DNA of 64,000 nt from a bacterium (GTDB taxonomy: Bacteria; Patescibacteriota; Minisyncoccia; Phycocordibacterales; VMGT01). The position numbers and the translations under genes are program-made. A model generated the notes under the pieces. That model saw only the letters and a list, made by a program, of their open reading frames with translations, was not told where the DNA came from and ran no database searches. Below, one piece after another: positions 7,236-49,355 of the stretch (its first letter is position 1; every line of letters begins with the position of its first letter). Where the stretch lies: the NCBI GenBank assembly GCA_030697645.1, contig JAUYPI010000004.1, forward strand, positions 1,141 through 65,140. The letters run 5' to 3'.

Positions 7236-7414
7236 TAGACCTCTTGCATAACCCGCTCCTGCTACAATTTCTGATTTTTGGCTGCGACTTCGTCGAGTTT
7301 CGCAAAATGATTCTCGTCGTACAACAAGTACGCCGTCGAATCATTTTGCTCACTCTCCTCGTCTCGCTCAAAAATTAGAAATCTCGCGACGAAGCGGGTT
7401 ATGCAAGAAGTCTA
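7236..7414. repeat. ~180-bp TIR-bounded palindromic element (family TAGACCTCTTGCATAACCCG...CGGGTTATGCAAGAGGTCTA), copy 1
   Basis: One of 6 near-identical copies; internal nested inverted repeats (gcaaaatggttc/gaaccattttgc etc.); ends at the nucleotide before the ATG of the 7415 gene. Confidence 0.85.
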
Positions 7415-7723
7415 ATGAAATCCTACCCGATCAAAAACGAACTCGACTTTCTTATCGCGCGCGCAGAGAGCGAGCGTTCGGAGATGCAGACGCTGCTCGA
7501 TACTTCTCGCCGCGATGGCGATTATTGGAGAGAGAAGGCTACAGCGAAGCTCGCGACGTTTCTCGGCCTTGAGGTGCAATTTCTCTCGCGCCTTGCCGAG
7601 CTCGAGAGCGATTATCCCGAACTGGCCGCCGCCATCGAGGAGCGTAAGCGCTACCTCGCGGCTCTCGTAAGCGAGGCGCGGGCGATGTACGCCGCCTGGC
7701 AGGGTGCCGCGGAACAGACATGA
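7415..7723 (+). CDS. hypothetical protein
   Basis: 102-aa charged/helical ORF; ATG abuts the repeat element; 4-nt overlap with the downstream gene. Confidence 0.45.
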   Translation: MKSYPIKNELDFLIARAESERSEMQTLLDTSRRDGDYWREKATAKLATFLGLEVQFLSRLAELESDYPELAAAIEERKRYLAALVSEARAMYAAWQGAAEQT

Positions 7724-8790
7724 GTGAGATCACCGATACCACACATACCAAAACAGAGATCGCCGCGCATCTCGGTATTCTCCGCTCCCTCGAGACGCCG
7801 AGCGGGCTGTTTTTCGCCTCGGCAAAAGGGGTCTCGACTGGCTACGACAAGGCGTGGCTTCGCGACAACTTTTACACCTCGCTTGCGTTTGAGGCAGCCG
7901 AGGAATGGGAGACCGTCGCGCGATGCTCTCGCGCGGTGCTCGATATTTTCCTCAAACACGAAGAGAAGATCAGCTGGGCGGCTCGTGAGCGGCCGCACGC
8001 AAGCTACCAGTACATCCATGCGCGCTACCACCCCGAGACATTCGAGGAATTTTGGGATGAATGGGGGAATAAGCAAAATGACGCGGTTGGAGCCGTGCTT
8101 TTTAAGCTCGGCGACCTCAAGCGGCAGGGAAGAGGTGTCGTCGCGACTGCAGATGACCGGCGCATCGTACAGAAGCTCGTAGACTACCTTGTATCGATCG
8201 AGTATTGGCACGATCCGGACAACGGTATGTGGGAGGAGCAGGAGGAGGTGCATGCGTCCTCAATCGGCGCTTGCGTCGCGGGACTCCGCAAAGTGCGCGA
8301 GGCGTTTCCGTTCATCACGGTGCCACAGGGTACGATCGAGCGCGGCGGGGAGGCGCTGCGCGCGCTTCTTCCGCGCGAATCCGCGAGTAAGTTTTGCGAT
8401 CTTGCGCTACTCTCGCTTTTCTACCCGTATAATCTCCTTGAAGGCGCTGTGGCGGACGAAATCCTCAACAACCTCGAGTACCACCTTTCGCGCGAGCGCG
8501 GCGTGGTTCGTTACAAGACCGACCGCTACTATAATAAGAATGCCGATGGATGGAGCGAGGAGGCGGAGTGGACGATGGGTTTTCCGTGGCTTGCGATTGT
8601 ACACGCGCGTCGCGGCGCGCGAGAGCGCGCCGCCGAGTATCTCGACCGTGCGCGAGCCGTCCTCACGACGAACGGCATGCTCCCGGAGCTCTACCACTCA
8701 AACGCAACGACACCAAATGAAAACATTCCCCTTGCATGGGCAGAGAGCCTTTTCGTGGCCGCGCTCATCGAATGTGCACGCCTGCGATAA
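7720..8790 (+). CDS. glycoside hydrolase family 15-like protein (glucoamylase/trehalase-type (alpha/alpha)6 barrel)
   Basis: GH15 signatures AWLRDN (W-x-RD) and MWEEQEE (WEE general-acid motif); 356 aa. Confidence 0.55.
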   Translation: MSEITDTTHTKTEIAAHLGILRSLETPSGLFFASAKGVSTGYDKAWLRDNFYTSLAFEAAEEWETVARCSRAVLDIFLKHEEKISWAARERPHASYQYIHARYHPETFEEFWDEWGNKQNDAVGAVLFKLGDLKRQGRGVVATADDRRIVQKLVDYLVSIEYWHDPDNGMWEEQEEVHASSIGACVAGLRKVREAFPFITVPQGTIERGGEALRALLPRESASKFCDLALLSLFYPYNLLEGAVADEILNNLEYHLSRERGVVRYKTDRYYNKNADGWSEEAEWTMGFPWLAIVHARRGARERAAEYLDRARAVLTTNGMLPELYHSNATTPNENIPLAWAESLFVAALIECARLR

Positions 8791-8847
8791 AATCGGATTT
8801 TTAGGTAACTCACGGGCGCTTAGAATCCGGTTCGCCCGCTTTAGATC

Positions 8848-13147: not shown

Positions 13148-13215
13148 AATTTCCAATTTCCAAGCAAGTTCCAATTTCCAAATTTTCAAATCTAAAACAC
13201 GACAGACCGCGGCGT
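13148..13215. repeat. partial modular palindromic element (ttccaatttccaa arrays + aaaacacgac core)
   Basis: Half-element of the 7-mer-array family immediately upstream of the Clp-like gene. Confidence 0.45.
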
Positions 13216-13241
13216 TACTTTTTAATCCGCGTTCGACTTTC

Positions 13242-18872: not shown

Positions 18873-18921
18873 GGTCTCTGGGTCTCATATGTAAGAGGTC
18901 TATTAGATCGAAAACGTACAA

Positions 18922-22315: not shown

Positions 22316-22330
22316 AAAAATAGAGGGAAT

Positions 22331-22508
22331 CGCCCACGTCTTACAATTTCACGCTCGAGCTTCGGTGTTTGGAAATGGTGTCGCCTCGCTTACGAAAAAT
22401 GCAGAACTCGGCCTCCCTGCTGGTCGGCCTCAGACAGCTGCATTTTTCTACTCGGCTCGCCATTTCCTAAACACCTCTCGCTATGCGTGAAATTGTAAGG
22501 CGTGAGCG
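22331..22508. repeat. ~180-bp nested long palindrome
   Basis: Arms cgcccacgtcttacaatttcacgc / gcgtgaaattgtaaggcgtgagcg; inner tcggtgtttggaaatggtg / ccatttcctaaacacc; centre aaaaatgcag...ctgcattttt. Confidence 0.6.
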
Positions 22509-22693
22509 ATTTTGTGAGAGGCAGACGACGCACACTCTGTCCGATCGGATATTCTGCGCGTCGTTTCTGTAGTGGGTGTTTTTTGTTTTTTCAATGTTGC
22601 GCGGTCAGCAGACGCATATTATAGTGTCGGTTAGACAGTTCGGATTTGTGTTTCGACATGCGCTACATCCTAACGGAGTAAGGTGGTAGAACG

Positions 22694-25692: not shown

Positions 25693-26055
25693 GCCGCGGT
25701 AGCTCAGTGGTAGAGCGCTTGCCTGAAATCTTCGGGCCGTTTCGCAGTAATGCGGAAATGAAAATCGGGCGAAATGCTGGAAACCCTAACGTCGCAGTCG
25801 AGGGCAATCAGCACCCCGCCGTAAAGTCCCATAAGGAAACTTTACGGCAAGGTCAGAGACTATCCTTTTTTGGAGTACTGGATGTATGACGTCACGGGCG
25901 AATCTTAGGAAGTTCGTCGTTACGATATATCTCGGAAGCACCCGATCTCCCCTGATCAGCAATGGCGGGGAGAGTGATATAGTCCAATCCTCAAGGTGAC
26001 TTGAGTTCCATTTTGGAAGAGCAAGGCGTCGGGTGTTCGATTCACCCCCGCGGCA
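25693..26055 (+). tRNA. tRNA-Phe (anticodon GAA) interrupted by a group I intron in the anticodon loop
   Basis: Exon 1 GCCGCGGTAGCTCAGTGGTAGAGCGCTTGCCT; exon 2 GAAGAGCAAGGCGTCGGGTGTTCGATTCACCCCCGCGGCA; spliced loop CTGAAGA; all stems complementary. Confidence 0.7.
25725..26015 (+). ncRNA. group I self-splicing intron (~291 nt, no ORF)
   Basis: P1 GCCU|GAAAUCUUC-GGGC with the U.G pair at the 5' splice site; R element GGUCAGAGACUAUCC (cf. GUUCAGAGACUACA); S element GAUAUAGUCC exact; ends in G before exon 2. Confidence 0.65.
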
Positions 26056-26060
26056 CACAA

Positions 26061-26239
26061 TAGACCTCTTGCATAACCCGCTCCTGCTGCGATTTTTGAT
26101 TTTTGGCTGCGACTTCGTCAGCCGTCGCAAAATGGTTCTCGCCGTACAACAAGTACGCCGTCGAACCATTTTGCTTGTCTTCCTCGTCTCGCTCAAAAAT
26201 CAAAAATCTCGCCACGAAACGGGTTATGCAAGAGGTCTA
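26061..26239. repeat. ~180-bp TIR-bounded palindromic element, copy 2
   Basis: Starts 5 nt after the tRNA-Phe 3' end; TIRs tagacctcttgcataacccg / cgggttatgcaagaggtcta. Confidence 0.85.
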
Positions 26240-26255
26240 ATTTTTTCGCAGTCTT

Positions 26256-26654: not shown

Positions 26655-26830
26655 TGGTGGTATTAAGGTTTGAAATTCGAAGCACGAATATCGAAATCCG
26701 AACCGAACATTTGACCAGTGACATTTGACGCCTGGCTTCGAACCCGCTGTCGCCGTGTCAAAGGTCAAATGTCACATGTTAAATGTCGTGATTCGAATTT
26801 CGTGCTTCTATATTCGGATTTTGGCGGTAC
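26655..26830. repeat. composite modular palindromic element (cgaaatccgaa arms + acatttgacc/ggtcaaatgt core)
   Basis: Combines the arm module of the 30367/40893 elements with the core of the 1062 element. Confidence 0.6.
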
Positions 26831-30366: not shown

Positions 30367-30535
30367 AAATTCGAATATCGAAGCACGAACGTGACGAAAT
30401 CCGAAATTCGAATATCGAAATTCGAAACAATATCGAAATCTAAATGTTCCAATGTTCAAAACACGGTCGTCGTGTTTTCTGGCATTTGGATTTTGGTCAT
30501 TCGAATTTGTTTCGGATTTCGATCTTCTGGTTTCT
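30367..30535. repeat. modular palindromic element (cgaaat/atttcg arrays around caaaacacggtcgtcgtgttttc)
   Basis: Fills the rpsL-rpsG spacer; right arm ends 10 nt before the rpsG ATG. Confidence 0.6.
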
Positions 30536-30545
30536 GATTTAAAAT

Positions 30546-31016: not shown

Positions 31017-31261
31017 CATGAGCCCATGCTCTTCAACCGCACCGCGCTCGGCTTTATCGTGGGTTTTAGCGCTGTCATCGCGCTGAGTTTCGCTTTGATG
31101 GTGTTTGCCGGAAGACAGGCAGCAGATAAAGAAACGGCCGCACGTGCCGCATCCGAACTCGAAAGCAGACGTTGACATTTATTCGCGGCTCGTGTAGGGT
31201 CTTTATCATAAGATAGAGGCCGAAGAAGCAGATAGGCCGCAGCGCGCCGTGCTCGGCGCGA

Positions 31262-31400
31262 AATTTTCAATTTTCAATTTTCAATTTTCAATCAATGGCC
31301 AATGTTCCAATTTCCAAACACGACGTCGCCGTCCGTCGTTTGAAAATTGCCTCATTGAAAATGTATTGAAAATTGAAAATTGGAAATTGAAAATTCCCGC
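31262..31400. repeat. modular palindromic element ((ttttcaa)n - ccaaacacgacgtcgccgtccgtcgtttg - (ttgaaaa)n)
   Basis: Replaces the expected fusA/tuf position after rpsG. Confidence 0.6.
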
Positions 31401-32011: not shown

Positions 32012-32079
32012 ATTTATCAGCAGTACTTTTTACCGCTCTATAAAATTTATTAGAGATCAGTACATAAACAGGCGTAAGA

Positions 32080-32198
32080 ATTTTCAATTTTCAATCAATG
32101 ACCAATGTTCTAATTTCAAACACGACCACGACGTCCGTCGTTTGAAAATTGTCTCATTGAAAATGTATTGAAAATTGAAAATTGAAAATTGAAAATTT
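32080..32198. repeat. modular palindromic element (copy nearly identical to 31262-31400)
   Basis: ttttcaa arrays + caaacacgaccacgacgtccgtcgtttg core; between rplJ and rplL. Confidence 0.6.
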
Positions 32199-33377: not shown

Positions 33378-33560
33378 TGCAAGCTGGCGCAATTCCGAAT
33401 TTCTAATCTCTAATTTCGGATTCATGGAAATCGGAAATCAGGAGTTAGCCGCTCGAAATTGCGCTCGCTTTATCCACAGGGAGGATTCGCTATTTGACAT
33501 ACCCCTTATGGTATTATGAATCTGATTAATCAATAGGTCACATTATTCATCTTTATTTAT

Positions 33561-33739
33561 TAGACCTCTTCGGAAATTCCTTTCTGCTGCAATTTCTGAT
33601 TTCTGGCTGCGACTTCGGAAAGTATCGCAAAATGATTCTCGTCGTACAACAAGTACGCCGTCGAATCATTTCGCTCACTTTCCTCGTCTCGCTCAAAAAT
33701 CAGAAATTTCGCCACGAAAGGAATTTCCGAAGAGGTCTA
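33561..33739. repeat. ~180-bp TIR-bounded palindromic element, copy 3 (variant TIR tagacctcttcggaaattcc...ggaatttccgaagaggtcta)
   Basis: TIR stem differs from copies 1/2/6 but stays self-complementary (compensatory). Confidence 0.85.
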
Positions 33740-33753
33740 TTCCAATCAAATTT

Positions 33754-34455
33754 ATGATACTCGAATCGTGGAGTACGGTACTGACCCGCTCTTTTCAGGA
33801 TCTCTCGAGCGGGGTTATTAAGTTCTTGCCGGTGCTCGTTGTGGCGCTGGTTGTCTTTATCGTCGGCTGGGTGGTCGGTGTTGTTTTGGGCAAGGCCGTT
33901 GCCCAGCTCGTTCGGGCGCTGAAGGTTGATAATGCGCTTCGGAGCGCGGGGGTCGAGGAGGGTCTGCGGCGCGCCGGGTTTGCGCTTGATTCAGGCGCGT
34001 TCGTTGGCGGACTCGTCAAGTGGTTTTTGATTATCGTCTTTTTGGTCGCCGCGCTTGATGTTTTGGGGCTTACCCAGGTGAACGCGTTTCTCCAGCAGGT
34101 CGTGCTGCTCTATCTGCCGCAGGTGATTATCGCGGTGCTGATCCTTCTCGTCGCAGCGGTGATAGCTGAGGCCATGCAGAACGTGGTCGTTGGTGCGGCG
34201 AAGGCTGCGAGCGTGACCCACGCACATTTTCTCGGGAGCGTCACGCGCTGGGCAATCTGGGTGTTTGCGATCCTCACCGCGCTCTTTCAGCTCGGCGTCG
34301 CGCAGCCGTTCGTGCAGACGCTCTTTACCGGAGTGGTGATCGCGCTCTCACTTGCGGTCGGACTCTCTTTCGGCCTCGGCGGCCAGCAAGCGGCGTCAGA
34401 GTATATCGACAAACTCCGCAAAGATTTTTCGCACAAGCGAATGGATGGAGAGTAG
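33754..34455 (+). CDS. hypothetical polytopic membrane protein (conserved TM-helix repeat type)
   Basis: 233 aa, 5-6 TM helices; flanked on both sides by inverted copies of the 180-bp element. Confidence 0.5.
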   Translation: MILESWSTVLTRSFQDLSSGVIKFLPVLVVALVVFIVGWVVGVVLGKAVAQLVRALKVDNALRSAGVEEGLRRAGFALDSGAFVGGLVKWFLIIVFLVAALDVLGLTQVNAFLQQVVLLYLPQVIIAVLILLVAAVIAEAMQNVVVGAAKAASVTHAHFLGSVTRWAIWVFAILTALFQLGVAQPFVQTLFTGVVIALSLAVGLSFGLGGQQAASEYIDKLRKDFSHKRMDGE

Positions 34456-34533
34456 AAGGTGAAGAGTGGAAAGCAGAAGACTCCCCTTGCGTTCGGCATA
34501 CGCATGGTGTATTTTGATGTGTACATTTTGCAT

Positions 34534-34714
34534 TAGACTTCTTGCATAACCCGTTTCGTGGCGAGATTTTTGATTTTTGAGCGAGACGAGGAAGACAAGC
34601 AAAATGGTTCGACGGCGTTACTCGGTTGTACGGCGAGAACCATTTTGTGAAGTCTGACGAAGTCGCAGCCAAAAATCAAAAATCGCAGCAGGAGCGGGTT
34701 ATGCAAGATGTCTA
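34534..34714. repeat. ~180-bp TIR-bounded palindromic element, copy 4 (inverted orientation)
   Basis: Reverse complement of copies 1/2; its terminal gcaagATGtcta supplies the first in-frame ATG of the secY ORF. Confidence 0.85.
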
Positions 34715-34725
34715 TACGTTCGATC

Positions 34726-37233: not shown

Positions 37234-37432
37234 TCGCTACCTCCCCTGATTTTTAACAACGAACATCTTCCTCGGACTCATCCCACGCTGCTTTATATCT
37301 ATGGAAATGTCAAGCTCCGCGGGACTGGCCGATGTGTTGGTCATAAGGATGTCTAACATTATAGCTGGCCGTGTCAGTCATCCGATGTCACACACAGCAG
37401 TTGTGTGTCATCGGACGTCGGACATTGCAGCG

Positions 37433-37640
37433 TTGACAACCACGGCGCGAGCCGTAGACTGAAAACATAAAAAAGTTCTACATCTCTCTCGCCACCCTCT
37501 GTATTTTGTCGGCGGTGTTTGGTATTTGGACAGCGAGCCGCGCGGGTAGCGAAGAGATCAGTGCATGCGTCGGCACCTCTGGCCTCATGCGCTCTCTCGC
37601 GAGCGGCGAGTGCCGTCGCGGAGAAACGGGATTTAAATAG
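37433..37640 (+). pseudogene. duplicated 5' fragment (upstream region + first ~55 codons) of the secreted-protein gene at 40165; start codon mutated (ATG to ATA)
   Basis: ~90% identity to 40133-40330 (ttgacaaccacggcgcga...aaaaagttctacatctctctcgcca...), reading KKFYISLATLCILSAVFGIWT... then premature stop. Confidence 0.6.
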
Positions 37641-37654: not shown

Positions 37655-38485
37655 GAGGAGGGTCAGACCCTCCTCGGTTTGCAGAGCCATCGGTTTACAT
37701 ACTATGTGGTAGGATAATGCTAATGCCGCGACAGACGAGACAGTTTGAAGAGGGCGGGATTTACCATGTCCTCAATAGAGGAGTTGAAAAGAGAAAAATA
37801 TTTTCCAAGACGCAAGATTACCACCGCTTTATACTTGGACTTGAATTTTTCAACTCATCCGATACTACCGACCTGTGGCATCTTCTTGCCCGAGGAGGGT
37901 CTGACCCTCCTCGGGCAAGAGTACAGTCGGTGGGCGAGAGGCTTGCGTCGCAGCGCACGAAGCAAAAATGGCATCTCGTCGATCTCCTTGCTTTTGTGCT
38001 TATGCCAAACCACTTTCATCTTATACTGCGCGAGATTCACGAAGGGGGTATTTCTGCGTTTATGAAAAAGCTGGGTGGATACGCCATGTATTTTAATAAA
38101 CAATATCATCGCGTCGGTCCGCTTTTTCAGTCGCGCTATAAGGCGGTACCGATAAAAAGTGACGCACAACTTTCAGTGATTTATACCTACGTGCATACTA
38201 ATCCGGTAGAGATCATTGAGCCGCTGTGGAAGAAGGAGAACAAGGTGTTTCATCTCGACAAAGCGCTCGCGTACCTCAATGAATATCCTTGGACGAGTTA
38301 TCATGACTATGTGGGGAGGCCACAGTTTCCTTTTGTTACCCAGCGTGATTATTTGTCCGATTACTTTGGGAGCGCACAGGCGTGTCAGAGGGAAGTAGAG
38401 GAGTGGGTAGAGCACAAAGCGGCGATGGCTGACTTTGATCGGCGCGAGTTTGAGTAAGGCAGCAGAGGAGGGTCAGACCCTCCTC
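37655..38485 (+). mobile_element. REP-RAYT unit: RAYT gene bracketed by REP hairpins GAGGAGGGTCAGACCCTCCTC
   Basis: REP copies at 37655-37675 (upstream), 37892-37912 (inside the CDS, inverted centre) and 38465-38485 (8 nt after the stop). Confidence 0.7.
37717..38457 (+). CDS. REP-associated tyrosine transposase (RAYT; IS200/IS605-family Y1 HuH transposase-like)
   Basis: IYHVLNRGVEKRKIF (N-terminal strand, cf. YHVVxRTKYR), HuH motif MPNHFHLIL, catalytic Tyr region FQSRYKAV; 11 codons (LLARGGSDPPRA) are encoded by an in-frame REP copy. Confidence 0.75.
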   Translation: MLMPRQTRQFEEGGIYHVLNRGVEKRKIFSKTQDYHRFILGLEFFNSSDTTDLWHLLARGGSDPPRARVQSVGERLASQRTKQKWHLVDLLAFVLMPNHFHLILREIHEGGISAFMKKLGGYAMYFNKQYHRVGPLFQSRYKAVPIKSDAQLSVIYTYVHTNPVEIIEPLWKKENKVFHLDKALAYLNEYPWTSYHDYVGRPQFPFVTQRDYLSDYFGSAQACQREVEEWVEHKAAMADFDRREFE

Positions 38486-39779: not shown

Positions 39780-39947
39780 ATTTTTCTCCTTCTCATTCTA
39801 AATGCGTTCGACAACGTAAATGTACTACCAAGCCCGGCTTTACAGTGCATGTTTATAGGCAAAAAGTCAAGTTTCCCGTTTTTTATGCGGGCTTGAACGA
39901 TGTTCGAACTACCGGGAAAGCGGGGGAGGGGGGGGTCTTATAGAGAT

Positions 39948-40126
39948 TAGACTTCTTCGGAAACCCCTTTCGTGGCGAAATTTTTGATTTTTGAGCGAGA
40001 CGAGGAAAGCGAGCAAAGTGACTCGACGGCGTACTTGTTGTACGATGAGAGTCATTTTGCGAAGCTTGACAAAGTCGCAGCCAAAAATCAAAAATTGCAG
40101 CAGAAGGGAGTTTCCGAAGAAGTCTA
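39948..40126. repeat. ~180-bp TIR-bounded palindromic element, copy 5 (inverted orientation, variant TIR)
   Basis: tagacttcttcggaaacccc...ggagtttccgaagaagtcta; left boundary of the surface-protein island. Confidence 0.85.
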
Positions 40127-40164
40127 TTGGTTGACAACCACGGCGCGACCCGTAGGATGAAATC

Positions 40165-40833
40165 ATGAAAAAGTTCTACATCTCTCTCGCCACGCTCTGT
40201 ATTTTGTCTGCGGTGTTTGGCATTTGGACACTCAGCCGCGCAGGGGGCGAAGAGATCAGTGCATGCGTCGGCCCCTCCGGCCTCATGCGCTGGCTCGCGA
40301 GCGGCGAGTGCCGCCGCGGCGAGACCGAGCTCAATTGGAACGTGCAGGGGCCGCAAGGTTTACAAGGCGAGCGTGGACCGGCAGGGTCACAACTCCATTT
40401 GTTTGACGCAAGCGGGCAAGATCTCGGGGTACTTCTCGATATAGATAACGACATTCGCGAAAATGGGACTGGTTTTCGTACTGATTTTCCGTCTTTAGAC
40501 GCCGTGTTCGATTTTCAGTCATCTGTAAACCCGCCTTCATTTATTGTCTCTTCGAACTTATTGCCTCGCGGTTTGGTTTTTAGTGAATCAGATTGCTCAG
40601 GGATGCCATTTGTCGTTGAGCGACCGCTCCATGACTACACGGTAACCGAGTTTGACGGCTCGTATTATATGACCGGAGGCGTAGACAGCGATCCGGGCAC
40701 CGCAATGTCATACTTTGACAACACTGGCCGCGTTTGCATGAACATTCTACCGGAAGCGACCTCGACCTTTCCGCTTGTAAAAATAGTCCTTCCTTTTACT
40801 CTGCCCCTTGCGTACCCTCCTATGATTGATTAA
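40165..40833 (+). CDS. secreted protein with short collagen-like (G-X-Y) segment
   Basis: Signal peptide MKKFYISLATLCILSAVFGIW; GPQGLQGERGPAG triple-helix-type repeat. Confidence 0.55.
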   Translation: MKKFYISLATLCILSAVFGIWTLSRAGGEEISACVGPSGLMRWLASGECRRGETELNWNVQGPQGLQGERGPAGSQLHLFDASGQDLGVLLDIDNDIRENGTGFRTDFPSLDAVFDFQSSVNPPSFIVSSNLLPRGLVFSESDCSGMPFVVERPLHDYTVTEFDGSYYMTGGVDSDPGTAMSYFDNTGRVCMNILPEATSTFPLVKIVLPFTLPLAYPPMID

Positions 40834-40892
40834 AAATAGGTAAGGACACCGTCTGAAAAAATTTGTTCACTTGCCCGCGAATGTTAGACATC

Positions 40893-41068
40893 GGATGTCT
40901 AACATTTCACGAAATTCGAAATCCGAAGCACGAAATACGAAACAAATCAGAATGACCAAAATATAAATACTCGAAACACGACGGCCGTATTTTGAACATT
41001 AGGACATTTGGATTTTGATATTGTTTCGGATTTCGATATTCGTGCTTCGGATTTAGGTTTTCTTTATG
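40893..41068. repeat. modular palindromic element (cgaaat arrays around cgaaacacgacggccgtattttg)
   Basis: Same architecture as the 30367-30535 element; abuts the 41066 start. Confidence 0.6.
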
Positions 41069-41953
41069 CTTTCTTTTCTCCGCAGACATTTGATTCTTTC
41101 GCTCGGCGCGCTCGCGCTGTTTGCTTTTATTTTTAGCGAAGCTGTGTTTGCGCTTCCGGTGCGGCTCCTCACCTGGGAGCCGGAGCGGCTTGCGCCGAGC
41201 TCGATTGCGCCGGGGGAGGAGGTGACTTACACAGCAATTTTTACGCCGACGCTTCCGGTGCCGAAAGTGGAGAGTCTCACCGCCTCGCTCACGGGTCCGG
41301 CGGCGGACTTCCTAACCTCGCTCACGGTTGATTTGCCGACGGAGACAGGGAACACGCTTCGCGGCGGGACGAGTGTTCCGGTGCGGCTCGCGGTGCGCGT
41401 TCCTCTCGGCGCTGTCGTTGGGAGCTACCCGGGTACACTCACCCTGCGCTACGGCGAGGATGGTCTGCCGCTCCTTTTTGCGCCCGACCTTGCGGTGGAG
41501 CTCACGGTGTCGACCGTTCCCGTCCCGCCTGACCCGGGTAAAGCAGGGAAGGAGACGATCGCGGGGATTGACGTGAACACAAACGGCGTCCGCGACGATG
41601 TCGAGCGCTTCATCGTCTTCTCCTATAACGACATCACTCCAGAGCACGAGAATACAAGGAACGCGCTGTTCCAATATGCAGGGGCGGCGCAGGAGGGGCT
41701 GATGAACGCCGCAGACAAAGTGCAGGCGAGAGCGGAAGGGGAAGAGTTGGATCAAGCGCAGAATTGTCTTTGGGCAGTACGCGGCACCGAGGAGGGCAAC
41801 ACCGCTAGTTCGATACTGACAGCACAAATGTTCAACACAGTTGCTCGGACACGACAGTGGAGCATGTTTAATCAACAACTGAGCGGTCTCGTTTCTGTGT
41901 TAGAAACGAATGAAGAAATTTTACGAGGCGACTGCTCCTTTGAGATTCAGTAG
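41066..41953 (+). CDS. secreted hypothetical protein
   Basis: Signal peptide; Pro/Thr-rich beta-type N-terminal half. Confidence 0.5.
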   Translation: MLSFLRRHLILSLGALALFAFIFSEAVFALPVRLLTWEPERLAPSSIAPGEEVTYTAIFTPTLPVPKVESLTASLTGPAADFLTSLTVDLPTETGNTLRGGTSVPVRLAVRVPLGAVVGSYPGTLTLRYGEDGLPLLFAPDLAVELTVSTVPVPPDPGKAGKETIAGIDVNTNGVRDDVERFIVFSYNDITPEHENTRNALFQYAGAAQEGLMNAADKVQARAEGEELDQAQNCLWAVRGTEEGNTASSILTAQMFNTVARTRQWSMFNQQLSGLVSVLETNEEILRGDCSFEIQ

Positions 41954-41963
41954 TTTTGGCTTT

Positions 41964-43109
41964 ATGACGGCGAAATTGTTTCCCATCGTCGTTGCGCTGC
42001 TTCTTGTTTTCGGCTATGCACAGTCAGCGCACGCTTCCGCGTGCGCTGAACCGACAATGTCAATCTTTTTCGTAAACGGGATTGGCAACACTCGTGAGGA
42101 AGCGCGGCAATCTACGAAGGTTCTGGCAGACCATCTTTACACACATGCCGAAGTCACGCCGGAGTGCGTTCAAGTGGGTCTCGCCTACAATCACAACGAA
42201 CCCCTTTTTCTCGACTGGGTTGAGGCGTGGGAGCAGAAGATGGCGGAGGTGGACGACTTTATGGTCACGTTTTGGCTCTTCCTCGGTAGAGTCGCTGGCG
42301 CATCGGACGTGTTCCTCGCGACACTCTATAACGCCGTCACCCTTATTGACCCGCCAGCATACCTCATCGACGCCGATCTTGATGAGCACCTCGCCGCCTA
42401 TCGCAGCGAAATCACCGTAGGCCGCAAAGTGATCGCTGTCCCACACTCTCAAGGAAACTTTTATGCGAACGAAGCATGGGAAAAGCTTACCCCAGAAGAG
42501 CGCGCGTCTTTCCACATCGTCGCTGCCGCAACTCCGTCGGTGAGCGTGGCAGATGGCGGCCCCTACACGACGCTCGATGAAGACAAGCTGATCGCCGCCA
42601 TTCCGCTCTCACTTCCCTCAAACCTCACGAACGGCTCCGACTTCTCCTGCGAGGACGACTGGAAGTGCCATGGGTTCAAGGAGACGTATCTCAAGGCGAG
42701 TGCGGCGAGCGAAGACAAAATCGTCGAGGACATTCTCGCTTTGCTCATCGTCCCCCCTCCGCCTTCGCCCGAGGAGTTCGCGGAGCTTCGCGGCACCGTG
42801 ACCTACCAAATCAGACCTGATGATCCGATTATCCCCGCAGTCGGCGCGTCGTCCACCCTGCTTGCGGCGCCGGTCGGCGTTCGTGTTTACCAATACGCGA
42901 CGACCAGCGTTGATGCGGACGGCCACTATAGCTACCAGAATCTTCCTCTGGGACGCTACGTCCTTCGTTTAGAGCATCCCACGATCAGCCTGAACTTTAT
43001 TTTTTTCCTCGGTATGATTATTGATCAGCCGAAGACCTACATTCAGGATATACACTGGGGGCCGCTGCCGCCAGAGGCATGGGATTGTCTACCGCTGTGT
43101 GCGGAGTGA
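41964..43109 (+). CDS. secreted alpha/beta-hydrolase-like (lipase/esterase-type) protein with C-terminal carboxypeptidase-regulatory-like beta domain
   Basis: Signal peptide; nucleophile-elbow-like AVPHSQGNFY; C-terminal DGHYSYQNLPLGRYVLRLE. Confidence 0.45.
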   Translation: MTAKLFPIVVALLLVFGYAQSAHASACAEPTMSIFFVNGIGNTREEARQSTKVLADHLYTHAEVTPECVQVGLAYNHNEPLFLDWVEAWEQKMAEVDDFMVTFWLFLGRVAGASDVFLATLYNAVTLIDPPAYLIDADLDEHLAAYRSEITVGRKVIAVPHSQGNFYANEAWEKLTPEERASFHIVAAATPSVSVADGGPYTTLDEDKLIAAIPLSLPSNLTNGSDFSCEDDWKCHGFKETYLKASAASEDKIVEDILALLIVPPPPSPEEFAELRGTVTYQIRPDDPIIPAVGASSTLLAAPVGVRVYQYATTSVDADGHYSYQNLPLGRYVLRLEHPTISLNFIFFLGMIIDQPKTYIQDIHWGPLPPEAWDCLPLCAE

Positions 43110-43348
43110 CAAAACATTAACGACGCTTTACAGCGAGTACGCTTTGTTTCGTAACTGTATTTTTGATGAGTTATGCGTTGACAGAGAAGAGCGCACGTCC
43201 GTAGTATGAACATTACGAGTGACGAGGTAACAGTTACCTGTTACTAAAATTGCATCTCGCGGGGGAAACCGGGGTGCATAGCAGACGAATGCTATGCAGA
43301 CCAGTTTTTCTCGCGATTTTCTTTTGGGCGCACAGGGAGTGGAGGTGA

Positions 43349-43396
43349 AAAACAAACCCGTCACGCGGTTCTTTGCCGCGTGACGGGTTTGTTTTT
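43349..43396 (+). terminator. long perfect hairpin + T-run (aaacaaacccgtcacgcgg...ccgcgtgacgggtttgtttttt); first of three consecutive hairpins (to 43502)
   Basis: 21-bp perfect stem; followed by a 23-bp-stem hairpin 43398-43462 and a 11-bp-stem hairpin 43466-43502. Confidence 0.5.
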
Positions 43397-43607
43397 TGAG
43401 CCCACACGTTGGCGCGTCTCGGTATTCATAAAATGTAAGCGAGACGCGCCAACGTGTGGGCTCCGGGAGACAACATGGAGTTTTGCGACGTCATGTTGTC
43501 TCTGCCGAGGAGCTCACACAGGTCGATACCGGAGGTTTCTTCCGTTTACCATATGGGACGGAGGAAATAGATGTTCCGGCTTTATTGTTTTAACACGTAA
43601 TTTCTCT

Positions 43608-44663
43608 ATGATCAAGAAATTTGGAGTATTCCTTCTCGCACTCGCGGTCGTAGCGGTCGCAGCGCCGGTTCCCGGCGCGGATGCCGCAACCCTCTCGAGG
43701 CAGATCCACGTCACGAACGTGAACTCTGCCTGGGTGGGTACCGGACTCTACGTCTCTGCCAACAGTGGCTCTAATTCAGCCATGGGCGGTGACGGCGGTG
43801 AGGCAGGTGACAGCGGGGAGAGCGGCAACTACGGCGGTGATGCAGGTAACGGCGGTGAGGGCGGCGACGCAGGCAGTGGCGGCACAGGCGGCGATGCGAA
43901 CGGCGATGGTGATGGTGACTGGGGTGGCGACGGTGGCATGGGCGGCACAGGCGGCGACGGCGCCGAAGGCGGTGACGGTGGCGATACCGGGGACACCGGC
44001 AATGGTGGGATGGGCGGCATGGGCGGTGACGGCGGTTCGGTGACGACAGGAGACGCTTCAGCCGATGTGACCGTGCTCAACGATGTGAACTTCAACGACA
44101 CCGACATCACCGACGAGTGCGGTTGCGATGACCCATCGTTCGAGGAGGACGCGAGCTCTTCATGGGAGATGCGCGAAGATGACGACCGTCACTGGGAGGC
44201 GGCATCCGAGAGTTATTCCACACACGCCGTTGAGGAAGAAAACATTATTGACGTTACGAACGTCAACGGTGCAGAGGTGGGGACTGAGGGTGCTGTGTAT
44301 GCCGATACCGGTTACAACGACGTTGATGGCGGTGAAGGTGGAGAAGGCGGGGAGACGGGTAACAGCGGCGACTCAGCAGGCGAGGGTGGTAACGGTGGCG
44401 AGGGTGGCGAGGCAGGCAGCGGTGGCGATGGCGGCGATGCGAATGACGTAGGCGCTGAGGACACCGGCGGCAATGGCGGTGATGCCGGCCAGGGTGGCAT
44501 GGGTGCCGAGGGTGGCAATGGTGGCGACACTGGAGACTCGGGCGCTGGCGGCGCCGGTGGCAATGGCGCCATGGGCGGCTCTGTCACCACGGGCAACTCG
44601 GGCATTTTCGCAGCAGTCGTTAATCTCGTGAACCAGAACATCACCCGCATCACACGCAAATAG
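43608..44663 (+). CDS. secreted Gly/Asp/Glu-rich repeat protein (GGDGG-type repeats)
   Basis: Signal peptide MIKKFGVFLLALAVVAVAAPVPGADA; long GG(D/E)(A/G)G arrays; modules VTTG-x-A/S...VN-x-VN-x-N shared with the giant protein. Confidence 0.55.
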   Translation: MIKKFGVFLLALAVVAVAAPVPGADAATLSRQIHVTNVNSAWVGTGLYVSANSGSNSAMGGDGGEAGDSGESGNYGGDAGNGGEGGDAGSGGTGGDANGDGDGDWGGDGGMGGTGGDGAEGGDGGDTGDTGNGGMGGMGGDGGSVTTGDASADVTVLNDVNFNDTDITDECGCDDPSFEEDASSSWEMREDDDRHWEAASESYSTHAVEEENIIDVTNVNGAEVGTEGAVYADTGYNDVDGGEGGEGGETGNSGDSAGEGGNGGEGGEAGSGGDGGDANDVGAEDTGGNGGDAGQGGMGAEGGNGGDTGDSGAGGAGGNGAMGGSVTTGNSGIFAAVVNLVNQNITRITRK

Positions 44664-44777
44664 TGTTGACGCAAGGGTGAAGTTTAAAGTCCTCGACTCG
44701 ACGACTCTCGTCGGCTCGTAGGCGAAGGCGCGGAGCTTGTGACTCCCGCCTTCCACAGCCCTTTTTGAAAAAGGGCT

Positions 44778-45428
44778 GTGGAAGGCGAATGCAAAATGGA
44801 AAAATCAAAAATTAAAATGCCAATGCAAAATACAAAATTGTCTCTGACGATTCTCGGTATTTTTGGATTGGCGTTCGTGTCAGATGTTGCCGATGCGAAA
44901 AGTGTATCCGTTCAAAACATAATCTCGGTTTTTTCTTCAAGCGGCGGGAATGTGGCACGGGAGGGCGAGATCGTGGAGGGAAAAGCGGAGAGCGAGGTCT
45001 TTGTCGAGACACGGGTCAACGGCGCGGTTGTCGAGAGCTACGATTCGAGAAAAGTCGTTGAGGAGAGTGCGGTGGTAGCAGACCTACACACGCAGCAGTT
45101 TAACGATTCGTTCGAGAGTGAGGATGGCTCGGTAGAGACGCATGTGTCGCTAGAAAATAGTGTTGGATATCCGAAAAGTGCGGGGCATCGGATGTCCCGC
45201 AGTACCGTGGAACAGCCGATGTCCACTGTTTCGAGCTCGACGAATGCCACCGCGACGGCAGAAGCGCAGATTGCCGCAACGAGAACCGCGGCAGCCACAT
45301 CGTCCGCAGCAACCACCTCGCTCTTTGCCGCCGGAGCGAGTAATGAGGAATCAGCGGCGCAGAGGTCATTATTCAAAAGAGCGTTCAAGTTTATAGCGTA
45401 TGTCTTTTCTTTCAAGTGGATTTTTTAA
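44778..45428 (+). CDS. secreted hypothetical protein
   Basis: Signal peptide (LSLTILGIFGLAFVSDVADA), Ser/Thr/Ala-rich C-terminus; start ambiguous (44778/44817). Confidence 0.4.
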   Translation: MEGECKMEKSKIKMPMQNTKLSLTILGIFGLAFVSDVADAKSVSVQNIISVFSSSGGNVAREGEIVEGKAESEVFVETRVNGAVVESYDSRKVVEESAVVADLHTQQFNDSFESEDGSVETHVSLENSVGYPKSAGHRMSRSTVEQPMSTVSSSTNATATAEAQIAATRTAAATSSAATTSLFAAGASNEESAAQRSLFKRAFKFIAYVFSFKWIF

Positions 45429-48400
45429 TACGGCGTTCGTGCGGCGCGTGCTCGCGGGCGTGATGGTTGTCGCTCTCCTTATGGTGAGCGCGGTACCGCT
45501 CTCAGTGATTGCCGAGGACGGAGGCGGGGATGTTGTCGCGACCGAGGCCACTCTAGGTGAGAGAGGGACTGACGGGACAGATGGCACCGACGGCGCGGAC
45601 GGTCGCGATCGCGGCGAGCGTGGGACGCGAGATGGTAGCGATGGAGAAGACGGCGGCACGGGCGAGGGCGGCGAGGATGGGAGCGGGGATGAGAGTGGCA
45701 CGGAAGGCACATCCCCTGGAGACGGGACGAGCGGCGAGGATGGCACGGGTACCGAGGAGACTCCAGACGGCGCGGACGGGACTTCTTCAAGCGACACGGG
45801 CAACCAGAGCACGAGCGGCGAAGGGGACACGAGCATCACGACTGGTGCTGCCACGGCCGTGACTGACGTAACGACCAAAGGGAACGTGAATAGCACCGAC
45901 ACAGAGGCTCTAAGCGAGGACGGAAGCGGCAACATTGATGGGAGCGGGAGCGCAAACGGTGGCGGTGGAGGCACCACAGATTCCGGGTCCGAGACCCCAC
46001 CTGCTGCTGATGATGCTGCTGATGATGCTGATGCGCACACGCGCGACGACCGCCGCGACAGCAAAGTGCTCGATAAACGGCCACGTGACAGTGCGACAAC
46101 GACATCGCTTGAGACCATCATCGAGTCTGAAAACGATATCACCGTTGCAAACGAGAATGAGACTCTGGCGTCGAGCGGCTTAAACAGCGCGGGTGGAAGC
46201 GGCTCGGTCAGCGTCACGACCGGCACGTCAACCGCATTTGCAAATATACTCAACGCGGTGAACGTGAACCTGGTGAACTCAAGCGGCCTCATGCTTTTCT
46301 TCAACAGTCTTTTCGGCTCGCTCGGCACGCTTGATCTCCGGACCGCGCTCGGAGGAGATGATGCGCTTATCGGGGGCGGCATTTTTGGCGAGCGAGAACC
46401 CTCGATCGGCACGTGCACCTTCAGTGGCTGCGCGGGCGATGTTTCGACGCGGATATACGCCTCGAGCACCGCGCGGATCTTAAACGACATCATCGTACGC
46501 TCGATCGCGGGGCAGAATGTGGCAACGACGAGTGGCGAGCTCGCACGCATTGATTCCGGCGATGCGCTCGCCGGAGCGAACGTCGTCAATGTTGCGAACA
46601 CGAATATCGTCAATTCAAACTATCTCCTGCTTGCCCTCAACGCCTTCGGCGACTGGGCGGGGGACCTCGTATTCCCGAATGGTGATTTTTTCAAACAAAT
46701 TTTTGGCGGCGGGGCTCGCGGGTCTGGCGACATCGAGGAGGACGAAGAAGGCAGCGAAGCGCACTCACTCGTCGCGAGTACAACGATCGCAAGTACGAAC
46801 ACCGCGGGAGTAGAGAATGAACTCGACGTTGACGCTCGATCGGGCGGGAACGCCGCGACATCGACTCTCGGGAGCGCCGAAATCGAGACCGGCTCCTCGG
46901 CCGCGCTGTCTCAGGTGGTGAACCGGCTCAATCAGAACATCATCGGCGGGAATTCGATGCTTGTACTCCTTCAGATACATGGCGACTGGGCGGGTAATCT
47001 CTTCAACGTCCCCGAGGGGATTCTCTGGGAGAGGACGCCCGGGGGAGTCGCGATTTGGAATGATCCGAATTATGCGGGAGGAGCGGTGGGAGCGGGTACC
47101 AGCGGCTCCAGCGAGGGAGAGGAGGGCAGTCTCGGAGTAATCGAAGACGCTCTCGTGCCGCTCTCGGAGCTCACCGTTTCGCGCGGTGACCGCGAGGCGC
47201 GCCGCGCAGCGCGCGACGCCTCGGACGAGGAGCGTCGCGGTACCACGACGACCGAGATTCTTCACCAAAACGTCGCGGAAATCGCCAACAACGTGAAAGT
47301 CCTCGCGCTCACCGGAGAGAACCGAGCGCAAAGTGTTGGCGATTCACTCATCACGAGCGGGAACGCGCTTGCCGCGGCGAACATCCTCAACATCGCAAAC
47401 ACGAACGTGATCGGTGCGAACTGGATGCTCGCGCTCGTCAATATCTTCGGCGACTGGAGCGGCAACCTCTCGTTCGGCGAGCCGGACCTCTGGATAGGCA
47501 CGACTGTTGACGCGCCGCGGAGTCCCCTAGAGGCCGGCGACGAGCTCACGTATCACTTTACGGTCGCAAACCGTGGCGACGCGCGCGCAAGCAACGTGTG
47601 GCTCAATGCGCGAGCCACCGGCGATCTCATTGCGTTTGATCGGAGCTTTACCGATTCGCTCGGCGACGCGCATTTCTATCTGGGTACGCTCGCGCCCGGC
47701 GATGTGCGGGAGCTCTCGCTCACGGGGCATCTCGATACGCCGCTTCCGTTCGGGAGGCACACGATTGACCATACGTTCGCGATCGCAAGCTACGAGCCGG
47801 AGACGAACCGCGCCGACAACACGGAGACACTCTCGCTCTTTGCATTTGGCGGCGAGGCGCCGGCGACGGGTAGCAGTACCGGCAGCGGCGAGAGCGGCAG
47901 CGGCGCGGGTTCCGGTTCCGGGGAGAGTGGAAGTGGTGCGGGCAGTGGCGGTTCGGACGTTAGTGCAGGCGGGGGCTCGTCAGACGAGAGTGCAGGCGGC
48001 GGTTCAGGCAGTGGCGGTAGTGACGGTGGTATTGGCACAGGCGATACAAACTCCGGCGGGAATACTGGCAGCACAGGGGGCAGCAGCGGCGGCAGTCAAA
48101 GCGGCAGCGGGGGCGCCTCTTCAGGTGGTTCTGGAGGAGGGGGTGGCGGCATTTACTATACGCCGCCAGCGGACTTAGAGATAGAAAAGCGCAACGGCGC
48201 GACCTCACCGGTTCCCGCCGGAAGCTCGGTGGACTACACCGTAGTGATTCAGAATGACGGCCTCGGCGAGGCGTACCACGCCGTGCTGGTCGATGTTCTG
48301 AAAGACAAAGACGGCACGGTGATTCACGAGGAGAGTTGGTCACTTGAGACGATTTATCCAAGCGAGGAGGTGACGGTGAAGTATACGATCGAGTTCAGCC

Positions 48401-49146
48401 TGAATACCGCTCCCGGAACCTACACGAACAGCGCCTACGTGAAGGCCTACGACGGCCATCCCTCGCTTGATCCATTTTACGGTTCTGCCGCGGATTCTCC
48501 GACGGTGACAAGCACGGTTGAGATCAGCAGCGCTTCGGTTTCGTCTGGCTCCTCTGGTACGGGAGGTGGAGGCGCGAACACGACGACGACAAATACAACA
48601 AACACGAATTCGACGGGCACAACACCGCCACCCGCGGCACCCGTGCCGCTATCCCAGAACGAGACCGCGAGCTCGACTAGCGCGACCACAAGCAGCACGC
48701 CCACCACCACTCCGCGAGCGACCTCCTTCAGAGCGACGGCTATCGCAGCAGCGCCAGCGCCGACGAATCCCATTGCCGCGGCGCTCTCGCCTTTCTCGCC
48801 CGCCTTGCTCGGGGCCACCCTCCCTGCGCCAAGTGGCACTCCGGCGTTTGAAGATTTTGAAGATTCAGGTGCCGCCCGCGCGGCGGTGCGAGAGAGCGGT
48901 ATCGCCCGGGAGCGGATTCTTCCTACACTGTCCTCTACGGGCGCGGAACCAGCAAGCGAGACATCGGGAGCACTCACCTCGCGAGACGAGGGGTCGCTTA
49001 CACCCCTCTCTGGCCTCGCGCACGCGGCAGCGGCATTTCTCGCGAGTCTCCCCATTCCGGCATCCATATTTTTGCCGATATTTCTCTTGGTCCTTGTGCT
49101 TGTTGGCATGCTGCTCTTCACTCGTCCTTCTGGCGCCCGGGCATAG
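45400..49146 (+). CDS. giant (1248 aa) cell-surface repeat protein with collagen-like G-X-Y tract, repeated beta modules and C-terminal TM anchor
   Basis: Signal peptide; GERGTDGTDGTDGADGRDRGERGTRDGSDGEDGG; >=4 copies of module ...TSGNALAAANILNIANTNVIGANWMLALVNIFGDWSGNL...; DUF11/CARDB-like segment; C-terminal hydrophobic anchor LPIFLLVLVLVGMLLF. Confidence 0.65.
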   Translation: MSFLSSGFFNTAFVRRVLAGVMVVALLMVSAVPLSVIAEDGGGDVVATEATLGERGTDGTDGTDGADGRDRGERGTRDGSDGEDGGTGEGGEDGSGDESGTEGTSPGDGTSGEDGTGTEETPDGADGTSSSDTGNQSTSGEGDTSITTGAATAVTDVTTKGNVNSTDTEALSEDGSGNIDGSGSANGGGGGTTDSGSETPPAADDAADDADAHTRDDRRDSKVLDKRPRDSATTTSLETIIESENDITVANENETLASSGLNSAGGSGSVSVTTGTSTAFANILNAVNVNLVNSSGLMLFFNSLFGSLGTLDLRTALGGDDALIGGGIFGEREPSIGTCTFSGCAGDVSTRIYASSTARILNDIIVRSIAGQNVATTSGELARIDSGDALAGANVVNVANTNIVNSNYLLLALNAFGDWAGDLVFPNGDFFKQIFGGGARGSGDIEEDEEGSEAHSLVASTTIASTNTAGVENELDVDARSGGNAATSTLGSAEIETGSSAALSQVVNRLNQNIIGGNSMLVLLQIHGDWAGNLFNVPEGILWERTPGGVAIWNDPNYAGGAVGAGTSGSSEGEEGSLGVIEDALVPLSELTVSRGDREARRAARDASDEERRGTTTTEILHQNVAEIANNVKVLALTGENRAQSVGDSLITSGNALAAANILNIANTNVIGANWMLALVNIFGDWSGNLSFGEPDLWIGTTVDAPRSPLEAGDELTYHFTVANRGDARASNVWLNARATGDLIAFDRSFTDSLGDAHFYLGTLAPGDVRELSLTGHLDTPLPFGRHTIDHTFAIASYEPETNRADNTETLSLFAFGGEAPATGSSTGSGESGSGAGSGSGESGSGAGSGGSDVSAGGGSSDESAGGGSGSGGSDGGIGTGDTNSGGNTGSTGGSSGGSQSGSGGASSGGSGGGGGGIYYTPPADLEIEKRNGATSPVPAGSSVDYTVVIQNDGLGEAYHAVLVDVLKDKDGTVIHEESWSLETIYPSEEVTVKYTIEFSLNTAPGTYTNSAYVKAYDGHPSLDPFYGSAADSPTVTSTVEISSASVSSGSSGTGGGGANTTTTNTTNTNSTGTTPPPAAPVPLSQNETASSTSATTSSTPTTTPRATSFRATAIAAAPAPTNPIAAALSPFSPALLGATLPAPSGTPAFEDFEDSGAARAAVRESGIARERILPTLSSTGAEPASETSGALTSRDEGSLTPLSGLAHAAAAFLASLPIPASIFLPIFLLVLVLVGMLLFTRPSGARA

Positions 49147-49176
49147 GCCCATGGCTCGTCATGGCGCACGGCGTAT

Positions 49177-49355
49177 TAGACCTCTTGCATAACCCGCTCC
49201 TGCTGCGATTTTTGATTTTTGGCTGCGACTTCGTCGGACTTCGCAAAATGGTTCTCGCCGTACAACAAGTACGCCGTCGAACCATTTTGCTTGTCTTCCT
49301 CGTCTCGCTCAAAAATCAAAAATCTCGCCACGAAACGGGTTATGTAAGAGGTCTA
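49177..49355. repeat. ~180-bp TIR-bounded palindromic element, copy 6
   Basis: Right boundary of the surface-protein island; forward orientation. Confidence 0.85.

Follow-up and report, generated by a model that had tools for sequence, protein, structure and literature searches.

Six copies of a hairpin repeat in a patescibacterial contig

We analyzed 64,000 nt of contig JAUYPI010000004.1 (assembly GCA_030697645.1) from a bacterium of the Patescibacteriota, in the following called the window. Within it, a repeat of about 180 bp bounded by terminal inverted repeats (TIRs) occurs six times, always between genes and close to them; it is a miniature transposable element of the inverted-repeat type (MITE). 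Pfam scans of the approximately 50 open reading frames (ORFs) in the window revealed ordinary housekeeping genes. The SecY protein encoded here has its closest matches (96%, 89%, then ~70% identity) among Parcubacteria/Paceibacterota proteins, which places the host within the candidate phyla radiation (CPR); its G+C content of 51–62% is unusually high.

A first-pass annotation, made from the sequence alone, had reported six copies of the repeat. All six were recovered at these places by a repeat search over the 64 kb, as four direct and two inverted copies, and were confirmed by alignment, by an nhmmer search with the family profile, which returned exactly six copies in the window, and by covariance modeling. 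Covariance modeling, a check which that annotation had proposed, found exactly those six when the window was scanned; model R1 gave them 179–191 bits, with the next candidate in the window at 24 bits. The copies align over ~180 nt with a mean column identity of 83%. The 18-mer CTCGTCTCGCTCAAAAAT, invariant among them, occurs 6 times in the window against 0.09 expected occurrences, and a 12-mer of the TIR 13 times against 1.45. Compared to copy c2, which has perfect TIRs of ~20 bp, the other direct copies are 88%, 80% and 98% identical and the inverted copies ~84–99%. The 98% identity between c2 and c6 suggests, at the sequence level, recent activity of the element. The previously assigned ends lie one base too far out; the true ends are one base inside, yielding an element of 177–179 bp that begins with 5′-AGAC and terminates with GTCT-3′.

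Two subfamilies can be recognized in the window, A (c1, c2, c4, c6) and B (c3, c5). Copy c1 (subfamily A, TIR AGACCTCTTGCATAACCCG) occupies positions 7237–7413; its + strand shows what we call the plus form (GGCTGCGAC...CTCGTCTCGCTC). A duplicated AAT flanks the copy (7234–7236 and 7414–7416). This copy had been described as ending 1 nt before the ATG at 7415; the ATG is indeed adjacent but overlaps the right-hand duplication (AAT-G) and is therefore older than the insertion. Copy c2 (26062–26238, + strand) lies between AAT at 26059–26061 and AAT at 26239–26241, 17 nt upstream of the ATG (26256) of a Zincin_1 gene and downstream of a tRNA-Phe gene. That the copy adjoins this intron-containing tRNA had been noticed correctly; the last base of the tRNA is at 26055, and 3 nt separate it from the duplication. 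Subfamily B is first represented by copy c3 (TIR AGACCTCTTCGGAAATTCC; 33562–33738, + strand), which is flanked by ATT at 33559–33561 and 33739–33741.

Copy c4 (34535–34713) is inverted, with the plus form on the − strand, and measures 179 bp owing to a 2-nt insertion at the tip. Its flanks, ATT at 34532–34534 and ATA at 34714–34716, represent an imperfect duplication (2 of 3 positions). The true start of secY, at 34726, follows 12 nt further downstream. The proposal that this copy supplies the first ATG of secY did not hold: the ATG at 34708 is merely in frame and upstream; the secY homologs listed are mostly 423 amino acids long and, in the alignment with L163, similarity begins at the ATG at 34726. 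Accordingly, the ATG at 34708 inside c4 is not the secY start. Copy c5 (subfamily B, 39949–40125) is also inverted, on the − strand, and flanked by ATT, read on the + strand, at 39946–39948 and 40126–40128. Copy c6 (subfamily A, 49178–49354, + strand) has ATT at 49175–49177 and 49355–49357 and is situated between a giant DUF11 gene (stop at 49146) and an ORF starting at 49369.

The arrangement of inverted copies bracketing a single gene (33754–34455) and a gene island (40165–49146) is present as described, but the pairs look like independent insertions, because the duplications of c3, c5 and c6 are intact and that of c4 is preserved at two of three positions. For the same reason, composite transposons formed by the inverted pairs were rejected. 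The genomes of CPR/Patescibacteria are small and streamlined, yet the six copies take up about 1.7% of the window and lie no more than 40 nt from gene starts (12–39 nt upstream of start codons).

The differences between copies that had been observed to change in both halves together are present in the alignment (GCATAACCCG/CGGGTTATGC versus CGGAAATTCC/GGAATTTCCG and ATGATTCTC/GAATCATT versus ATGGTTCTC/GAACCATT). Because subfamilies A and B occur together in other metagenomes too (e.g., L123 versus L053, L060 and L125), these paired differences were inherited from different source copies and not fixed in place.

Relatives of the element in other bacteria

We scanned one genome per species with the 18-mer and metagenomes with two motifs. 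The two-motif scan yielded at least 120 stretches; among the matches listed, 92 satisfied a stem test, and the non-redundant ones numbered 64. Metagenomes and genomes together yielded more than 120 relatives, and 55 diverse members, aligned with MAFFT (alignment A3), were used for the tests of covariation and coding described below. Some 18-mer matches, for example those in L001 and L014, fall within coding sequence and were set aside as chance matches.

The relatives belong to Candidatus Gribaldobacteria (five contigs, one metagenome-assembled genome (MAG)), Candidatus Saccharibacteria and other Patescibacteria, to MAGs of Pseudobdellovibrionaceae and Bdellovibrio, and to groundwater MAGs assigned to 'Deltaproteobacteria'. 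A shorter variant occurs in Bacteroidota, including the isolates Olivibacter domesticus DSM 18733 and Parapedobacter sp. 2B3. The placements based on MAGs may include binning errors, while those in Patescibacteria and in the Bacteroidota isolates are safe. Neither the core nor the TIRs matched any sequence in IMG/VR, and there was no match in the phage, plasmid and E. coli collections; an origin from phages or plasmids was therefore rejected.

The TIRs are wholly different among subfamilies (AGACCTCTTGC, AGACTTCTTCGGA, AGACCTGTTGC, GAGATGGTTAC, GAGCCTGTTTAAA, GGGGGCACAC, TAGAACCGGTCTC and others). It is the interior that is conserved while the TIRs vary, and the subfamilies differ most in the outer 30 bp. 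Our literature searches yielded no account of MITEs or structured repeats from CPR bacteria, and this large MITE family, distributed across several phyla, is apparently undescribed. That the family occurs in several phyla suggests that the element, presumably together with its transposase, has been transferred across phylum boundaries.

The family does not encode a protein. The ORFs of 60–80 amino acids predicted within the copies had been called artifacts, and this agrees with the family-wide comparison, in which each frame, on either strand, is open in 13 of the 55 members at most. A protein-coding repeat was hence rejected: none of the six frames is conserved, and an AAAATG of the window copies reads AAAAAG in other subfamilies. 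Annotation pipelines would call spurious ORFs of 60–150 amino acids and false upstream starts in the element, as in the case of secY.

Several further sequences resemble parts of the element. In L082 (1935–1983), L049 (1332–1386) and L138 (1173–1224), we identified derivatives of the MITE family. Two of them are mini-elements of ~50 nt that consist of the outer stem only (the one in L049 is flanked by TAA/TAA), and one is a copy truncated after 51 nt. Within the window, a solo TIR-like end, AAT|AGACCTCTTACATA, is found between two convergent genes, on the − strand at 18886–18901. It matches at 13 of 14 bases and is preceded by the usual AAT, the interior of the element is missing behind it, and it may be either the leftover of a copy or a coincidental match. 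A seventh long hairpin, ~185 nt in length and of different sequence (22328–22514; DNA fold −55.5 kcal/mol, z −6.4), is the one further sequence that the covariance model matched over its full length (24 bits, E 0.003); it could be a very diverged relative or another hairpin element.

Target-site duplication and an empty site

The search for target-site duplications, suggested by the first-pass annotation, identified a 3-bp duplication and bore out the transposon reading. The duplication is perfect in five of the six window copies, c4 (ATT versus ATA) being the exception. Among 19 distinct insertions of the AGAC subfamily, 14 show a perfect 3-bp match at the AGAC/GTCT boundary, reading AxT-AGAC...GTCT-AxT. 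In the GAGATGG subfamily, 13 insertions have a perfect 3-bp repeat directly outside GAG...CTC, with varied triplets (TCG, TCA, CAA, TCT, GTT, TAT, AAT, ATT, TAA). When the boundary was shifted to other positions as a control and repeats of 3–6 bp were counted, only 0–3 matches were obtained. The members of the Bacteroidota subfamily are flanked by TAA/TAA.

We also found an empty site. L167 reads GAAAC-AAT-ATCGAAA, whereas the filled L123 reads GAAAC-AAT-[AGACC...GGTCT]-AAT-ATCGAAA, so that both differ by exactly the element and one AAT. The AGAC subfamily alone cannot distinguish a TA duplication from a 3-bp duplication, because TA is palindromic; it is the varied GAGATGG triplets and the L167/L123 pair that indicate 3 bp. 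An element of the IS630/Tc1-mariner type, duplicating TA, was thus rejected, since the empty site reads AACAATATCG where the TA model predicts AACAATAATATCG and the GAGATGG subfamily lacks TA flanks. Orthologous empty sites were detected neither at secY, where the upstream region of the 96%-identical relative is not syntenic, nor at c2, where the Zincin_1 neighborhoods in relatives have neither the tRNA nor the element.

The target in L167 (empty) and L123 (filled) is itself a repeat, which looks similar to the type GAAATCCGAAAC / CATTCGAATTTG. Repeats of this family are located at 1124–1175, 26757–26822, 30397–30541 and 40912–41055 of the window, at 3597–3715 in L167 and at 8749–9046 in L123. 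Separately from the MITE family and unrelated to it, the assemblies L165, L166 and L167 of one relative's locus differ around position 3740–4040 by an insertion of ~297 nt between the Zincin_1 gene and the one following it, where L166 has a run of N.

The 3-bp duplication indicates a transposase that makes staggered cuts, from which we infer a DDE-type enzyme. Duplications of 3 bp are known from the IS5/PIF-Harbinger-like, IS3 and IS30 groups of insertion sequences (ISs). The same observation argues against single-strand transposition by an HUH/Y1 enzyme, a mechanism that leaves no duplication. On this alternative, the repeat would be REPIN/REP-like or derived from IS200/IS605 and moved in single-stranded form by a Y1 (HUH) transposase, for instance the RAYT-like one encoded in the window at 37717–38457. 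The presence of this gene, the strand-specific fold described below and the conserved imperfect hairpin loops would fit, and REPIN/RAYT systems are similar in that their hairpin repeats are dispersed and the fold matters for mobilization. REPINs are paired short REPs without target duplication, moved by a Y1 transposase. The element studied here differs by its true TIRs and by 3-bp duplications of variable sequence, backed by the empty/filled pair, and it shares no sequence with the 21-nt hairpins GAGGAGGGTCAGACCCTCCTC that belong to the RAYT-like gene. REP/REPIN elements and PATEs derived from IS200/IS605 were rejected on these grounds, and mobilization by an HUH enzyme appears highly improbable.

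Conservation of the hairpin by compensatory changes

Copy c2 folds end to end as one hairpin, with predicted energies of −86.9 and −102.2 kcal/mol for the RNAs of the two strands and −55 kcal/mol for DNA (z about −11 to −13). For the 55-member alignment A3, RNAalifold predicted 38 pairs, of which 31 show compensatory double changes. When modeled as a single hairpin of 56 pairs, 91.3% of the cells are standard pairs, compared to 44–47% in slid controls, in which the 3′ partners were shifted by 1–3 columns. Double changes affect 45 of the 56 pairs. The covariation score of 0.463 compares to 0.09–0.11 for the slid and 0.153 for shuffled alignments, and none of 500 shuffles reached any of the observed pairing measures. 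This supports the earlier suggestion that selection acts on base pairing and not on a reading frame; every helix contains pairing-preserving changes.

Covariation in the outer 20–30 bp alone is no proof of selected pairing, because a single transposase has to fit both TIRs. The interior is thus more informative. The helices H4, H7, H8 and H9 are paired in 88–95% of cells and show double changes in 17 of 19 pairs (3/3, 4/4, 5/7 and 5/5, respectively); these covarying interior helices lie more than 70 nt from the ends. The pairing itself is therefore constrained.

The hairpin contains twin internal loops, in which one asymmetric module is present twice. Its plus form has 5′-GCTRC opposite 5′-TCGC; on the other strand, 5′-GCGA faces 5′-GYAGC, where the opposed bases can be read as G.G, C.A, G-C and A.G. 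Loop spacing is identical in 46 and 49 of the 55 members, respectively, and the distance between the twin loops is close to two helical turns, so that both would face the same side.

These loops bear on the possibility that there is no selection on pairing at all. The arms could have been kept alike by neutral arm-to-arm correction, or have arisen by repeated fold-back of diverged IS ends, with TIR covariation reflecting the fit to the transposase. Coevolution of the TIRs is expected of any TIR transposon, and the concentration of subfamily differences in the outer 30 bp would agree with this. Correction or fold-back would, however, erase non-complementary loops, whereas the same loops with the same spacing are found in all subfamilies; moreover, the interior helices covary and wobble pairs are tolerated one-sidedly (see below). 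We give a neutral origin very little credence.

The two strands are not equivalent. The strand GAGCGAGACGAGG...GACGAAGTCGCAGCC folds better in all 64 of 64 members, by −13.6 kcal/mol on average. This bias largely reflects the conserved loops that the members share, which on the more stable strand are purine-rich G.A, G.G and A.C loops. In the variable helices, A:C combinations in the plus form, which correspond to G.U on the GAGCGAGACGAGG strand, are counted 86 times, but G:T combinations only 36 times. Wobble pairs are tolerated on one strand only.

Position relative to genes and a possible RNA function

Across the family, gene starts and gene ends are both found near elements, and the nearness of the copies to genes reflects the compact genome. 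No gene family is enriched beside the elements, and the recurrent neighbors are universal genes (rpsE, rpsH, rplO, secY). In several lineages, elements are located inside or next to ribosomal-protein/secY operons. With regard to flanking genes, co-directional sites have one form of the element in 24 cases and the other form in 17. Sixteen sites lie between divergent genes and only three between convergent genes.

This setting raises the possibility that the element is a MITE whose fold and loops are kept for a transcribed RNA hairpin, acting in mRNA stabilization or processing (RNase III/RNase E) or in protein binding. Copies inside compact operons must be co-transcribed, the window copies lie shortly upstream of start codons, and the association with ribosomal-protein/secY operons extends over several lineages. 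Purine-rich loops on the more stable strand and wobble tolerance on one strand are also in line with an RNA, although the latter is expected of single-stranded DNA as well, and there are precedents in ERIC, Correia and bcr1 (PMC3184786). Against this stands the lack of orientation preference (24 versus 17), due to which the mRNA contains the less stable strand in more than half of the co-directional sites. The elements contain no sigma-70-type promoter or intrinsic-terminator consensus and have no match in Rfam 15 at gathering scores. Furthermore, host-level selection on scattered copies poorly explains covariation between subfamilies that derive from different source copies. We consider an RNA role a possible but unlikely reason for the conservation of the fold; the missing sense-strand preference, promoter and terminator speak more for a reading of the fold in DNA, during mobilization, than for a host RNA.

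Candidates among known structured sequences were rejected. The best similarities to known RNAs or ribozymes are at chance level (sca_ncR14 with 23 bits where 62 are needed, Hammerhead_II with 15 where 37 are needed), and the family does not preserve the CUGA found in the hammerhead-like stretch. A site similar to those of IHF, AATCAAAAATTTC, which the window copies have in their middle stem, is not retained by other subfamilies. Integron attC sites have R″/R′ boxes (RYYYAAC/GTTRRRY) and form arrays of one orientation beside cassettes, whereas the elements described here end in AGAC/GTCT or GAG/CTC and are dispersed in both orientations.

A transposon with a structured interior

Taken together, the analysis shows a MITE, inserted with a duplication of 3 bp, in which a particular fold has been preserved along its lineages. 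We consider it probable that this non-autonomous DNA transposon is mobilized by a transposase encoded elsewhere through a 3-bp staggered cut at A/T-rich intergenic sites, and that its fold is read during mobilization. The defining features of bacterial MITEs are present, apart from a parent IS, of which none was found. In the proposed mechanism, the transposase would insert the element by this staggered cut, and the fold would be recognized as single-stranded or extruded DNA. A duplex of 177 bp corresponds to about one persistence length and is thus too stiff to loop its ends together. A snap-back or extruded hairpin would instead bring both element ends next to each other. The twin loops, constant in spacing and facing one side, could serve as docking sites for the transposase or for a conserved host DNA-binding protein. 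Lineages losing the fold would stop multiplying, which would lead to the compensatory pattern among source copies.

Several observations weigh against this interpretation or limit its support. There is no DDE transposase among the ~50 ORFs of the window in the Pfam scans, and in ~1 Mb of related loci no TIR pair encloses a gene; all pairs are formed by neighboring MITE copies. The L167/L123 pair represents paralogous copies of another intergenic repeat and not an orthologous locus. The cell counts for covariation and wobble pairs are not phylogenetically independent. The conservation of the core motifs is inflated, as both collection scans required them; positions outside the search patterns are 85–95% conserved, including CTGCTGCAAT, TTTCGCNACGAAA and the GTC and TCC beside the cores. 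Finally, a strand-specific fold would suit single-strand (HUH-type) transposition better, yet HUH transposition leaves no duplication. We know of no IS family that combines a strand-specific fold with target duplication.

More speculatively, and in our view rather doubtfully, the twin-loop hairpin might be a functional single-stranded module placed on an interchangeable TIR 'chassis'. It could then be part of a new, snap-back type of DDE transposition, which would account for the strand-specific fold as well as for the 3-bp duplication, or be a protein-binding RNA or DNA device that spread among Patescibacteria, Bdellovibrionota and Bacteroidota.

The only lead to an autonomous partner comes from the end of contig Ga0210017_1015306 (L139, 5145–5242). 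Here, AAT precedes an 18-nt TIR, AGACCTGTTGCTTAATAA, that does not differ from the TIR of one MITE subfamily; the sequence behind it is not that of the MITE, contains a GGAGGTG motif resembling a ribosome-binding site and breaks off with the contig. Judged from these features, it may be the end of an autonomous element.

Comparison to known bacterial elements

Long stable hairpins as well as compensatory changes have already been described for bacterial MITEs (PMC3184786). Similar in arrangement are Correia/NEMIS elements of Neisseria and ERIC of Enterobacteriaceae, which are intergenic MITEs of 100–160 bp with TIRs and one long hairpin, are often co-transcribed, have an interior conserved across species and no securely known partner transposase (PMC3184786). 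They differ in having TA at both ends instead of a 3-bp duplication and in being confined to a family of genera, whereas the family reported here spans phyla. A blastn search against 5,426 complete genomes of E. coli, where ERIC has been described, gave no match. Why MITEs retain whole-length hairpins is still an open question for ERIC and Correia elements, and the more than 120 members with many TIR types and one folded core are a rich natural data set for asking it.

Nezha and Chunjie from cyanobacteria and Geobacter are similar in length (130–235 bp), in their TIRs of ~20 bp and in having direct repeats; their predicted hairpins are very stable (−98 to −130 kcal/mol for Chunjie), and Nezha was validated by empty and filled sites (PMC3184786). 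The TIR of Nezha, however, also occurs in a known IS (ISNpu3), and the repeats of Chunjie measure 9 bp, while the element studied here has no known parent IS, a 3-bp duplication and a conserved interior instead of a conserved TIR. In the Bacillus cereus group, bcr1 is a mobile repeat of ~155 bp in which compensatory changes keep the double-stranded structure (PMC3184786), but it has 5-bp direct repeats, a cruciform-like RNA with two stem-loops and is restricted to one species group.

With regard to the duplication length, canonical Harbinger elements, relatives of the bacterial IS5 family, generate 3-bp duplications (PMC12730594). The likeness to IS5/PIF-Harbinger is by duplication length only, and the triplets found here (AAT, ATT, GTT, TCG, TCA, CAA, TAA and others) break the strict TWA/TNA rule. 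The IS1031 group of IS5, with 3-bp repeats and GAG ends like those of the GAGATGG and GAGCCTG subfamilies, is a lead only.

Other features of the window

The tRNA-Phe(GAA) gene upstream of c2 (25693–26055) has its anticodon loop interrupted by a group I intron (Rfam RF00028, 65 bits, 25715–26006) and was not called by ARAGORN. Group I introns in tRNA genes of Patescibacteria have been reported in a 2025 bioRxiv preprint (10.1101/2025.07.03.662931).

The RAYT-like Y1 transposase gene matches Pfam PF01797 (E 3.7e-7); its best NCBIfam match, REP_Tyr_transpos, reaches 43.7 bits, below the cut-off of 80. Identical copies of the G+C-rich 21-nt hairpin flank it at 37655–37675 and 38465–38485, and a third copy lies in frame inside the gene (37892–37912). 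By its sequence organization, the gene with its hairpins forms a REPtron-like unit, whose sequence has no relation to that of the 180-bp element. Just upstream of this unit lies a truncated copy (37432–37627) of the 5′ end of the gene at 40165–40833, which encodes a signal-peptide-like N-terminus; the duplication comprises 196 nt with 89% identity to 40130–40325. This suggests a paralog disrupted by the RAYT-like unit, or a rearrangement beside c5.

A second, unrelated family of hairpin repeats of ~150–160 nt, with the core ...CGTCTTTGCGAGGAGCGGAGCGA...GCAATCCAG..., is located at 27789–27936, 54850–55009, 58443–58551, 58637–58809 and 63300–63412, and also at 61716–61777 and 63625–63686. Two of its copies are 98% complementary, and the DNA fold has −40.5 kcal/mol (z −5); probably, this is another MITE family. 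In addition, A/T-rich repeats (AATTTTCAATTTTCAA..., inverted GTTTGAAAATTG...) are found at 31261–31395, 32079–32198, 4754–4860 and 13148–13189. They form inverted pairs upstream of rplJ (31466) and rplL (32214), recur elsewhere and may be leader or promoter-region elements.

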